NCBI GenBank assembly: GCA_040751795.1
Contig: JBFMHR010000001.1
Span: 424,722-488,721, forward strand
Origin: Thermoplasmatota archaeon
Lineage (GTDB): Archaea; Thermoplasmatota; Thermoplasmata; UBA10834
Direction of reading: 5' to 3'
Length of the DNA: 64,000 bases
A program made the position numbers and the translations under genes. Positions 62,095 through 64,000 of this stretch are shown in pieces (within the stretch, counting starts at the first letter, position 1; each line of letters opens with the position of its first letter). The notes under the pieces are model-generated. The model saw nothing but the letters and a program-made list of their open reading frames with translations. It made no database searches and was not told the origin of the DNA.

Positions 62095-63575
62095 CAGAAC
62101 CACCGGGTTATGACGACCTTCCTGTCCGTGAAGAACTGCACGGCGTCCTTGCCCTGGCCGTGGAGGTCGCCGAAGAACGAGCCCTTGTACCCCGCGAAGG
62201 GGAAGTAGGCCATCGCGGCGGCGATGCCGACGTTGATGCCTATGTTCCCGCACTGGGTCTTGTACCTGAACTCGCGCGCCCACTTGCCGTTCTGGGTGTA
62301 GATCGAGGAGGCGTTGCCGAACGGGCTCCTGTGTATGAACTCGATCGCCTCGTCGAGGTTCTTCATCCTGTGGAAGCAGACGACCGGGCCGAAGATCTCC
62401 TCCTTCGCGATGGCCATGTCTGGCGTCACATCGTCGAACACGGTCGGGCCGATGAAGTGCCCCTTCTCGTACCCCGGGACCTTGATGTCCCTGCCGTCAA
62501 GGAGGAGCTTCGCGCCCTCGTCCACGCCCTTCTGGATGTAGCCAAGGACCTTCTCCTTGGCCGCTGCGGAGACGACCGGCCCCATCTGGGAGCTCTCGTC
62601 CAGGCCGCAGCCGACCTTGAGGTTCTTCGACGCGTCGAGCCACTTCTTGAGGAGCGGCTCCGCGACGTCCCCGATGGCGATCATGTTGGAGCCCGCGAGG
62701 CACCTCTGGCCCGCGCACCCGTAGAACGATGCCAGCATGTTGTTGACCGTCTTGTCGAGGACCGCGTCGGGCATGATTATGAGGGAGTTCTTGGCGCCGC
62801 CCTGCGCCTGCACCCTCTTGCCCCTCTCCGCGGCGGTCTTGTATATCCACTTCGCGACGGGCGTCGAGCCGACGAACGAGACGCCCTTGACGTCCTTGTG
62901 GTCGAAGAAGGTGTTGACCGCGTCCTCCCTGCCGTTCACCAGGCTGATCACGCCCGGCGGGAAGCCCGCCTGGTCGATCAGCTTGAACATGTACTGGGTC
63001 GTGATGGGCACCTGCTCCGACGGCTTAACTATGAACATGTTGCCCGTGGCGACCGCGTACGGCCAGAACCAGAAGGGCACCATGCCCGGGAAGTTGAAGG
63101 GGCATATGCCCGCGAACACCCCGAGCGGGGAGATGATTACCTCCTCGTCGATGTTGGAGGCGGCCCCGTCCTCGAGGTTGTAGCCCATCTGCAGCGAGGT
63201 TATCCCCGCCGCCACGTCCACGTTGTCTATACACCTGCGGGTCTCGCCCCTCGCGTCGTCGATCGTCTTGCCCTGCTCCTGGGAGATGATCCTCGCGATG
63301 TTCTCGTACTCGCGCTCCATTATGGTCTTGAGCTTGAAGAAGCACCTGGTCCTGTCGCCGGGGGCCGTCTCCCTCCAGCTCCACCAGGCATCCTGGGCCG
63401 TCTCTATGGCGGCCCTGGTCTCGTCCGCCGTCGAGAGCGGGACCTGGGCTATGACATCGGTAGTCGCCGGGTTCCTCACGTCGAGGGCCTTGGACGAGCC
63501 GGAGTCGACCCACTCCCCGTTCACGTAGTTCTTCAGTCTCCCGTAGTTCCTGCTAACTGGATCCAGCACAGCCAT
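62094..63575 (-). CDS. mmsA: CoA-acylating (methyl)malonate-semialdehyde dehydrogenase
   Basis: PFNFP, KPSE, FVGSTP, QAQGGAKN, GCAGQRCLA, EEIFGPV, FFGDLHGQGKD, KVVITRW. Confidence 0.94.
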   Translation of the reverse strand: MAVLDPVSRNYGRLKNYVNGEWVDSGSSKALDVRNPATTDVIAQVPLSTADETRAAIETAQDAWWSWRETAPGDRTRCFFKLKTIMEREYENIARIISQEQGKTIDDARGETRRCIDNVDVAAGITSLQMGYNLEDGAASNIDEEVIISPLGVFAGICPFNFPGMVPFWFWPYAVATGNMFIVKPSEQVPITTQYMFKLIDQAGFPPGVISLVNGREDAVNTFFDHKDVKGVSFVGSTPVAKWIYKTAAERGKRVQAQGGAKNSLIIMPDAVLDKTVNNMLASFYGCAGQRCLAGSNMIAIGDVAEPLLKKWLDASKNLKVGCGLDESSQMGPVVSAAAKEKVLGYIQKGVDEGAKLLLDGRDIKVPGYEKGHFIGPTVFDDVTPDMAIAKEEIFGPVVCFHRMKNLDEAIEFIHRSPFGNASSIYTQNGKWAREFRYKTQCGNIGINVGIAAAMAYFPFAGYKGSFFGDLHGQGKDAVQFFTDRKVVITRWF

Positions 63576-63667
63576 CCTATCGATTCCTCTTGGTCGTCAG
63601 ACCGGTCTCACAGCGTCTGAGCCGAGCCTGCGCCGCAGGCGGACGGAGGAACGACGACCCCCCTCAT
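63576..63667 (-). promoter_or_regulatory. Structured mmsA leader with uORF MRGVVVPPSACGAGSAQTL* (63667-63608)
   Basis: Three consecutive Val codons. ggtcgtc pairs with gacgacc, and the overlapping gtcgttcctc pairs with the SD region gaggaatcgat. Confidence 0.45.
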
Positions 63668-63756
63668 ACAGGTTCGCCTGCGACAACGGACTCCCGTCAA
63701 CATTTCGCCGCATAGTTCGCAATATGTTCGACTCAGGGCCCCCTATTCCGAGGTTA

Positions 63757-64000
63757 CATTCTACGGATGAGGTCCAGTTTTGCCAGAATGTGCTCCCTCT
63801 GTATATACGTTTTGGTGCGCCTGGCTCCGCGGCCAGCGCAGGGGCGGGACGAAAACACGGGAAGTGGTTTGGCGAAGGGGATGGTATGTAGAAGAGGTCC
63901 CTCGTCTATATCGAATGTGGTGAACAACGATGAGACGAGAGACCATGGTATATGTGGGCCTGGACGTACATAAAGAATTCTGCCAAGCTTGTGTCATCGA
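63757..64000 (+). mobile_element. IS110-family element, left end (boundary approximate)
   Basis: Composition shift to lower GC; about 170 nt of non-coding sequence with hairpins and a TATA; then the transposase N-terminus. Confidence 0.7.
63930..64000 (+). CDS. IS110 (DEDD) transposase, 3'-truncated by the window edge
   Basis: (MRRET)MVYVGLDVHKEFCQACVI, the hallmark IS110 N-terminal GxDxHK motif with the first catalytic Asp; GGTGA SD at 63919. Confidence 0.85.
   Translation, partial: MRRETMVYVGLDVHKEFCQACVI

Follow-up and report, generated by a model that had tools for sequence, protein, structure and literature searches.

The 64,000-nt stretch of DNA analysed here (the window; positions 424,722-488,721 of contig JBFMHR010000001.1, assembly GCA_040751795.1, which is contig C1 of genome G000 in our numbering) ends exactly where its contig ends. 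A preliminary description of this locus read an open reading frame starting at 63945 (MVYVGLDVHKEFCQACVI) as the beginning of an IS110-family transposase gene in an archaeon, and the roughly 170 nt before its start codon as the structured, non-coding left end of the element, encoding a bridge RNA. The reading frame is indeed present and continues past the end of the window. The question which this locus raises is whether the DNA in front of it belongs to the element at all and, if it does not, where the element begins and where its guide RNA is to be sought.

We conclude that the tail of the window is the opening 120 bases of an archaeal RNA-guided mobile element of established type. With a probability of about 0.85, an IS1111-type (IS110-family) insertion sequence of 1,282 bp, present in three copies, has the left end of one copy at nucleotides 63881-64000. 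The candidate guide RNA likely sits at the opposite (3') end of this element, beyond the window; the window itself includes no more of the element than its left tip and left subterminal repeat, the hairpin of the 5' leader and the first 56 nt of tnp (Table 1). The 16S rRNA of the genome is matched best, and at full length, by the archaeal model (1505 bits), in agreement with the origin first proposed; the host is a Thermoplasmata-like archaeon.

Table 1. Features at the right-hand end of the window (coordinates are window positions)
Feature	Position	Strand	Evidence
mmsA-like aldehyde dehydrogenase, 493 aa	62094..63575	-	ORF; Pfam Aldedh E = 1.4e-135
Host intergenic DNA	63576..63873	.	Varies among the three left flanks; present in five element-free genomes; no match to RNA model R1
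Left target half-site GAAGG	63874..63878	+	Matches left target guide (GAAGG-GG); empty sites of relatives
Core dinucleotide GG, recombination point	63879..63880	+	Junction comparison; empty sites
Element left end (tip ATGG, 64-nt 5' non-coding, 56 nt of tnp)	63881..64000	+	Identity to other copies
Left subterminal inverted repeat TATGTAGAAGAGGTCCCTCG	63885..63904	+	Pairs with reverse complement of right end
5'-leader hairpin enclosing TATA-like TCTATATC (63905-63912), ending at start codon	63896..63944	+	Minimum-energy fold
Start of tnp ORF, MVYVGLDVHKEFCQACVI...	63945..64000	+	ORF; domains of full protein

Boundaries of the element and its transposase

When the last 401 bases of the window were searched against the genome itself, two further places were found, both on contig C34. 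The three flanks on the left side have nothing in common until ...AAGG GG ATGG, and the three on the right side nothing past ATAGA GG TTTG; the sequence common to the copies begins at about 63874-63879, and not some 170 nt before the ATG as had been supposed. In an alignment of 16 related elements, 5' conservation likewise starts at (A/G)GGATGG, approximately 65-70 nt before the ATG, and about 190 nt are conserved 3' of the stop codon.

A DNA search of 30 relatives with nucleotides 63250-63874 revealed matches in five genomes of the same genus (80-87% identity). These have no element, their sequence continuing directly into a class-III aminotransferase gene, and their empty sites read GGAAGG-(G/T)G-TTT(G/C), with a single GG or TG. 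From these uninterrupted sites it follows that 63757-63873 is host DNA lying between the aminotransferase and mmsA-like genes, both on the minus strand, and that the point of recombination is the GG at 63879-63880. The definition of the ends from other copies or empty sites, which the preliminary description had recommended, therefore leads by way of three junctions, some 30 relatives and five same-genus empty sites to a boundary well inside the proposed RNA. A second GG follows the right tip (...ACATAGA). One clade of relatives has AG in place of GG, and has it at all four positions, namely both junctions and both guides. Our first boundary, with AAGGGGATGG as the opening bases of a 1,292-bp element, was rejected, since the empty sites show that AAGG and TTTG are target bases; their constancy appears to be imposed by the guides described below. 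The insertion site, GAAGG-GG-TTTG, is situated 17 nt beyond the stop codon of the aminotransferase gene and approximately 300 nt upstream of the mmsA-like gene, in keeping with the position first proposed.

The intergenic block beside this site, cagttttgcc.gaatgtgctccct..gtatatacgttttggt (63757-63873), is near invariant in the five same-genus genomes and could serve the mmsA-like gene as promoter or leader, or the aminotransferase gene as a terminator region. It has no Rfam match. The hairpin at 63816-63840 that follows is variable, and is absent from one of the five genomes (L226).

Counting one copy of the core, the element measures 1,282 bp, of which 64 nt at the 5' end and 190 nt at the 3' end are non-coding. 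Its subterminal inverted repeats agree at 18 of 20 positions and are set in by 4 nt at the left tip and by 2 nt at the right one; two 1-nt gaps kept them out of the automated repeat search. Between subfamilies the repeat varies on both ends together. The 5'-leader hairpin (inverted repeat I16, 12 nt, 92% complementary) was drawn by hand onto 28 relatives, where 79% of the cells pair and four of ten pairs change on both sides; RNAalifold applied to the left end did not return it, and its conservation seems only moderate from these alignments. In this hairpin a portion of the left subterminal repeat is base-paired to the nucleotides immediately ahead of the start codon, an arrangement that may restrict the translation of read-through transcripts.

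The transposase was characterized from the complete copy on C34, the only one with an assembled interior, where tnp encodes 341 amino acids, within the 330-350 aa range of IS1111 transposases. Both domains expected from the preliminary reading were found above their curated cut-offs, DEDD_Tnp_IS110 (PF01548; 2.4e-28) and Transposase_20 (PF02371; 2.7e-22), and the NCBIfam model transpos_IS110 ("IS110 family RNA-guided transposase") gave E = 1.1e-75 and 255 bits against a cut-off of 140. The protein aligns end to end with the IS621 recombinase (PDB accession number 8wt6; E = 1.8e-16), D7, E52, D90, D93 and S252 corresponding to IS621 D11, E60, D102, D105 and S241, which are listed as catalytic residues in PMC11208158. 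The IS1111 motif GL-P----S(t)G is represented by GLVPTVSQSA, with the serine in place and then A, not G. The longer non-coding region downstream of tnp (190 versus 64 nt) is the IS1111 layout.

A candidate guide RNA at the 3' end

Relatives were collected in two ways. A protein-level scan of reference genome contigs gave 254 candidate stretches, of which 139 were confirmed and 80 kept. Among the closest 22 loci (48-84% identity), 20 are from metagenome-assembled genomes (MAGs) of Thermoplasmata/Methanomassiliicoccales. One relative, L016, is a 1,205-bp contig in a MAG labelled Actinomycetes, and its protein is nearly identical to that of the element at L015; here a repeat contig was probably assigned to the wrong bin. 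A motif derived from the donor loop described below was then used to scan reference genomes (19 stretches, 18 with archaeal titles) and metagenomes (at least 120 stretches), and combination gave 144 distinct copies among the matches listed. For the RNA alignment, A1, 119 distinct stretches of 150 nt were reduced to the 69 that were less than 93% alike; eight without a target loop (L091, L106, L111, L141, L162, L192, L200 and L176) were dropped, and the element's own copy, L015 and L017 were added, for a total of 64 sequences.

The RNA candidate is approximately 114 nt long and possesses four helices. It corresponds to element positions 1061-1174 (C34:278496-278609, minus strand), beginning about 11 codons before the end of tnp and reaching into the first part of the 190-nt 3' non-coding end. 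In the element's own copy the order from 5' to 3' is the 5' strand of P1, CAAACC, P2 with the stop codon in its loop, GAAGG-GG and the 3' strand of P1, followed by a linker, the 5' strand of P4, ..CCAT.., P5, ATAGA-GG and the 3' strand of P4. RNAalifold, given the 64 sequences, returned P1, P2, P4 and P5 unaided. In the resulting 19-pair structure 98.1% of the cells pair, and 7 pairs (36 cells) vary on both sides; none of 500 shuffles reached it on any of five measures, and control structures slid along the alignment pair in 21-56% of cells. P5 and the internal ATAGAGG were fixed by the search pattern, so that their conservation is partly imposed, while P1, P2 and P4 were unconstrained. In P1, CCCC/GGGG is replaced by CCTC/GAGG, which keeps the pairing at the price of a changed codon (Pro to Leu). 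Additional donor-loop pairs proposed by RNAalifold (GCC with GGY, TA with TA) were omitted, since they would bury the guides and show no two-sided changes.

Folded alone, the element's own RNA is no more stable than its shuffles (z = -0.05), and its minimum-energy fold gives only P1 and P2. A search of Rfam 15 with the full copy and the window end (E <= 1) revealed no match to an RNA of the element, the sole match being a neighbouring tRNA-Thr; Rfam may hold no model of the IS1111 type. A covariance model, R1, built from A1, as the preliminary description had suggested for its own candidate, recognized two AG-core elements outside its training set, L024 (84 bits) and L025 (62 bits). It matches one place in the element's own genome and nothing in the 64-kb window at E <= 1. 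Weak R1 matches (14-22 bits, E from 4e-4 to 0.04) were observed in Nitrosopumilus (L026, L028 and L062), about 100-290 nt after a tnp match, the transposases there being only about 36% identical.

At the RNA level, one sediment metatranscriptome contained 0.06 of the sampled words, as contigs 90-95% alike and not as the element's own sequence. Together, six contigs account for portions of tnp in its 5' half and for some 45 nt of the donor loop. Antisense donor-loop sequence is joined to a left tip in one of them, which must therefore derive from a rearranged relative.

The 3' region carries same-sense copies of both junctions, and in the 16-element alignment these vary along with the junctions themselves. 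Among the matches listed, 121 copies have a readable target loop, 101 of them with a right flank and 37 with a left junction, and there are 39 distinct guide pairs. The right target guide, compared as its reverse complement with the core plus right flank (offset of +/-1 allowed), matched at a mean of 6.84 of 9 positions over 80 non-redundant sites, against 4.43 +/- 0.21 (maximum 5.09) for permuted pairings, 0 of 2000 being as high; for the left target guide and left junction the mean was 6.85 of 9 over 27 non-redundant sites, against 4.67 +/- 0.30 (0 of 2000), and in both cases the copies are kin, so that the permutation counts overstate independence and are not probabilities. The match extends to singletons with unrelated flanks, including GCAATGCC with GG-CATTGC, GCGAAACC with GG-TTTCGC and ACGAAACC with GG-TTTCGT. 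The element's own guides, GAAGGGG and CAAACC, fit all three of its insertion sites, with 6 nt each. In the AG-core elements L015, L017, L024 and L025, which were found through the protein search and not through the motif, both junctions read AG where the others have GG, and so do the left target guide and the left donor guide.

The donor guides vary less. ATAGAGG, the left donor guide, is identical to the right tip with its core, and both places read ATAGAAG in the four AG-core elements; co-variation of the donor guides rests on this one clade. The right donor guide is just 4 nt long (CCAT) and shows no co-variation, and the tip of subfamily B, ATGT, mismatches it. In this subfamily, furthermore, the right target guide fits only at an offset of 1 nt, leaving the core uncovered. 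Guides which do not fit their flanks were observed in L018, L158 (minus-strand copy) and L117, where one flank is that of another subfamily; these may be hybrids that arose by recombination between elements.

Within the RNA, the region of the right target guide is complementary to the stretch that follows the left donor guide, GGTTTGTCCGC (repeat I17; L002:446-457 and 542-553; 12 nt, 83%), from which it follows that the donor guide of the element's own subtype runs on with the first four target bases, TTTG. This extension is found in the own subtype and is missing from subfamilies A and B. We make no claim for handshake-like extensions (AT beyond the left target guide, TTTG beyond the left donor guide), as A and B lack the second.

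Taken together, these comparisons suggest that the 3' region is very probably the bridge/seek RNA of this family. Such an RNA would fold into two internal loops. The target loop would be closed by P1 (CCCC/GGGG) and topped by hairpin P2, with the right guide CAAACC on its 5' side, complementary to the top strand GG+TTTG, and the left guide GAAGGGG on its 3' side, with the sense of the left target and core. In the donor loop, P4 (GGGAC/GTCC) would form the closing helix and hairpin P5 the top, with CCAT on the 5' side complementing the left tip ATGG and ATAGAGG on the 3' side repeating right tip plus core. We infer that the RNA is transcribed and bound by the DEDD/Ser transposase, which would align the junction of a circular intermediate (...ATAGA-GG-ATGG...; predicted as ...ACATAGA-GG-ATGGTATG...) with the target, GAAGGGGTTTG for the element's own copy, and swap strands at GG. 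Strand exchange guided by RNA at the core is reported as demonstrated for IS621 and for seekRNA elements of the IS1111 type (PMC11208160, PMC11187229).

A different explanation of the same region would be that it is recognized as DNA, or is a 3' untranslated region or terminator, with protein-DNA contacts choosing the target and the guide-like matches arising secondarily because both the ends and a repeated target are conserved. In its favour are the slight representation in the one metatranscriptome, the lack of a thermodynamic signal in the element's own RNA, the near constancy of the donor guides, and the circumstance that in the two big subfamilies target conservation extends over about 30 bp, beyond the coverage of the guides, so that a repeated target could inflate the matches. 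Against it are four helices with compensatory changes, one of which costs an amino-acid change, and the co-variation of guide and flank in many singletons with unrelated flanks. Moreover, the matches are situated at a depth of 100-230 nt within the element and cover both strands around one core, as in the IS1111/IS110 systems studied experimentally. We consider this explanation quite unlikely.

The window copy and the DNA upstream of it

Since the contig breaks inside a repeat, and only 120 nt of the copy at the window end are visible, this copy might be a dead fragment or an assembly artefact and not one of three intact insertions. With the window end and the C34 copy as BLAST queries, we located three left junctions (the C1 end, that is, the window; one internal to C34; the C34 start) and three right junctions (one internal to C34; the C23 end; the C45 start), and no fourth end. 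The junction sequences overlap by 126-138 nt at 98-100% identity, the pattern expected of an assembler that breaks at a repeat, and 127-135 nt of the window tail are identical to the two other copies. The right flank of the C34 copy is the class-III aminotransferase gene (Pfam 4e-110), and joining the left flank of the window to it restores exactly the empty site of the relatives, colinear with all five genomes. The sole assembled interior is itself an argument for caution: the two flanks of C34:278388-279671 do not belong together, synteny with the five relatives assigning its right flank to the window insertion and not to the left flank with tRNA-Thr. This mismatch points either to a wrong assembly path through identical copies or to recombination between two copies. 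With three left and three right ends accounted for, we regard a fragment or artefact at the window end as very improbable, and an intact insertion as the preferred reading.

Much of what had been described in the DNA before the start codon exists. The TATA-like gtatatac (63801-63808), the hairpin tgcgcctggc...gccagcgca (63816-63840) and the gggac (63846) and gtccc (63897) are all in place, and 63757-63944 folds better than its shuffles (-73.8 kcal/mol, z = -3.57, 1 of 200 as good). The TATA-like box, the hairpin and gggac are host DNA, however, the gggac/gtccc stem crosses the boundary between host and element, and the one part of this structure that is element sequence is the hairpin at 63896-63944. 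The short complementarities to a presumed left junction at 63757 lose their partner, since no junction is situated there. That the family uses a bridge or seek RNA was very probably foreseen correctly, and loops complementary to target flanks and tips do occur, in the 3' RNA and thus outside 63757-63944.

That a bridge RNA is nevertheless encoded at 63757-63944, 5' of tnp, as in IS110-group elements such as IS621, is hardly credible: the stretch is non-coding and folds well, and a left-end RNA is the IS110-group arrangement described in PMC11208160, but the existence of empty sites in itself refutes such an RNA, the three copies have dissimilar sequence at 63757-63873, the relatives' elements lack this segment, five genomes possess it with no element there, the true 5' non-coding end amounts to just 64 nt, model R1 passes over the window, and the proposed stems straddle the boundary. 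The upstream region varies among copies and the long non-coding end lies 3', the arrangement which the preliminary description had itself named as contrary to its reading. The outcome is therefore a correction: the proposed bridge RNA is host intergenic DNA up to 63873.

Mini elements, subfamilies and relation to known systems

Among the matches listed, 126 copies could be classified, and 55 of these lack tnp and are mini elements about 275-335 bp long; the other 18 of the 144 copies lie too close to a contig end. A mini element consists of left end, candidate bridge RNA and right end (e.g. the metagenome loci L206, L208, L219, L113 and L116). Both flanks are available for 45 of them, and these fit the minis' own guides. 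In full-length elements, the right target guide and the 5' helix strand are encoded in the last codons of tnp. Subfamilies A and B, likewise represented by metagenome loci, insert into a single host motif about 30 bp long (TCGCCTTTCCTCCCCTATGGTCTTTTCCGAGG), facing opposite ways and about 7 bp apart; their left target guides are CATAG-GG (A) and CCTAT-GG (B), and the right target guide of A is TTTCCTCC. In the minus-strand copy of L180 an element of subfamily A is located inside the tip of one of subfamily B. Perhaps the guide RNA behaves as a portable module, with mini elements re-aiming a transposase supplied in trans, retargeting altering the C-terminal tail of the transposase, and the two subfamilies carrying guides of opposite sense for their common motif and inserting into each other's ends, an idea which we put forward only tentatively.

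By its structure the element appears to belong with the IS1111-type seekRNA/bridge RNA elements. As described for ISEc11, ISKpn4, ISPa11 and ISPst6 (Siddiquee et al. 2024, PMC11187229; Durrant et al. 2024, PMC11208160), these likewise have a DEDD transposase of 330-350 aa, subterminal inverted repeats (about 7-17 bp) and a long non-coding end 3' of tnp, and in their RNA, according to PMC11187229, the match to the target's top strand precedes, 5', that to the bottom strand, the same order as here. Their insertion is site-specific, as it is in this family, where two subfamilies use a repeated host motif. Unlike the named elements, the present ones have archaeal hosts (Thermoplasmata/Methanomassiliicoccales), read SA and not SG or TG at the serine motif, and carry the 5' helix strand and right target guide within tnp codons; the family is described here by sequence comparison. 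IS621, an IS110-group member (PDB 8wt6), belongs to the same protein family and shares the catalytic DEDD and Ser residues. Its RNA resembles the candidate in having two internal loops that each address both DNA strands about a core of 2 nt, with left guides of 7 nt and right guides of 4-10 nt. In contrast to IS621, the RNA lies here 3' of tnp, the order of guides within the loops is reversed, and the core is GG (AG in one clade), not CT.

The mini elements recall MITEPpu9 of the Pseudomonas putida element ISPpu9, described in PMC12288879 as a short tnp-less derivative with IS110-family ends, which is presumably moved in trans. According to the same source MITEPpu9 carries the small RNA Ssr9, whereas the minis carry the candidate bridge RNA itself. 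A literature search combining bridge RNA, MITE and IS1111 found only this ISPpu9 paper.

Archaeal members of the family are on record, with 662 archaeal IS110-family recombinases in one source (10.1101/2024.06.21.599552) and the ISfinder entry ISHvo10 mentioned in another (PMC11187229), and Durrant et al. 2024 (PMC11208160) report predicted bridge RNAs for 93% of the IS1111 entries. A full-text literature search for papers pairing IS110 with "Methanomassiliicocc" returned none. The element would thus be an archaeal addition to the known RNA-guided IS1111 type, which published supplementary tables may already include.

Knowledge of the mechanism is unchanged by this family. For annotation, the locus demonstrates that the left boundary of such elements has to be set from copies or empty sites and not from neighbouring hairpins. 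This is a well-defined archaeal element family, represented by more than 140 copies from genomes of Thermoplasmata/Methanomassiliicoccales and from metagenomes of sediment, and its guide code can be read as a 2-nt core (GG or AG), a left target guide of 7 nt and a right target guide of 6-10 nt. Its natural guide variants and tnp-less guide carriers provide material for the study of bridge recombination in archaea and for compact recombinase/RNA pairs.
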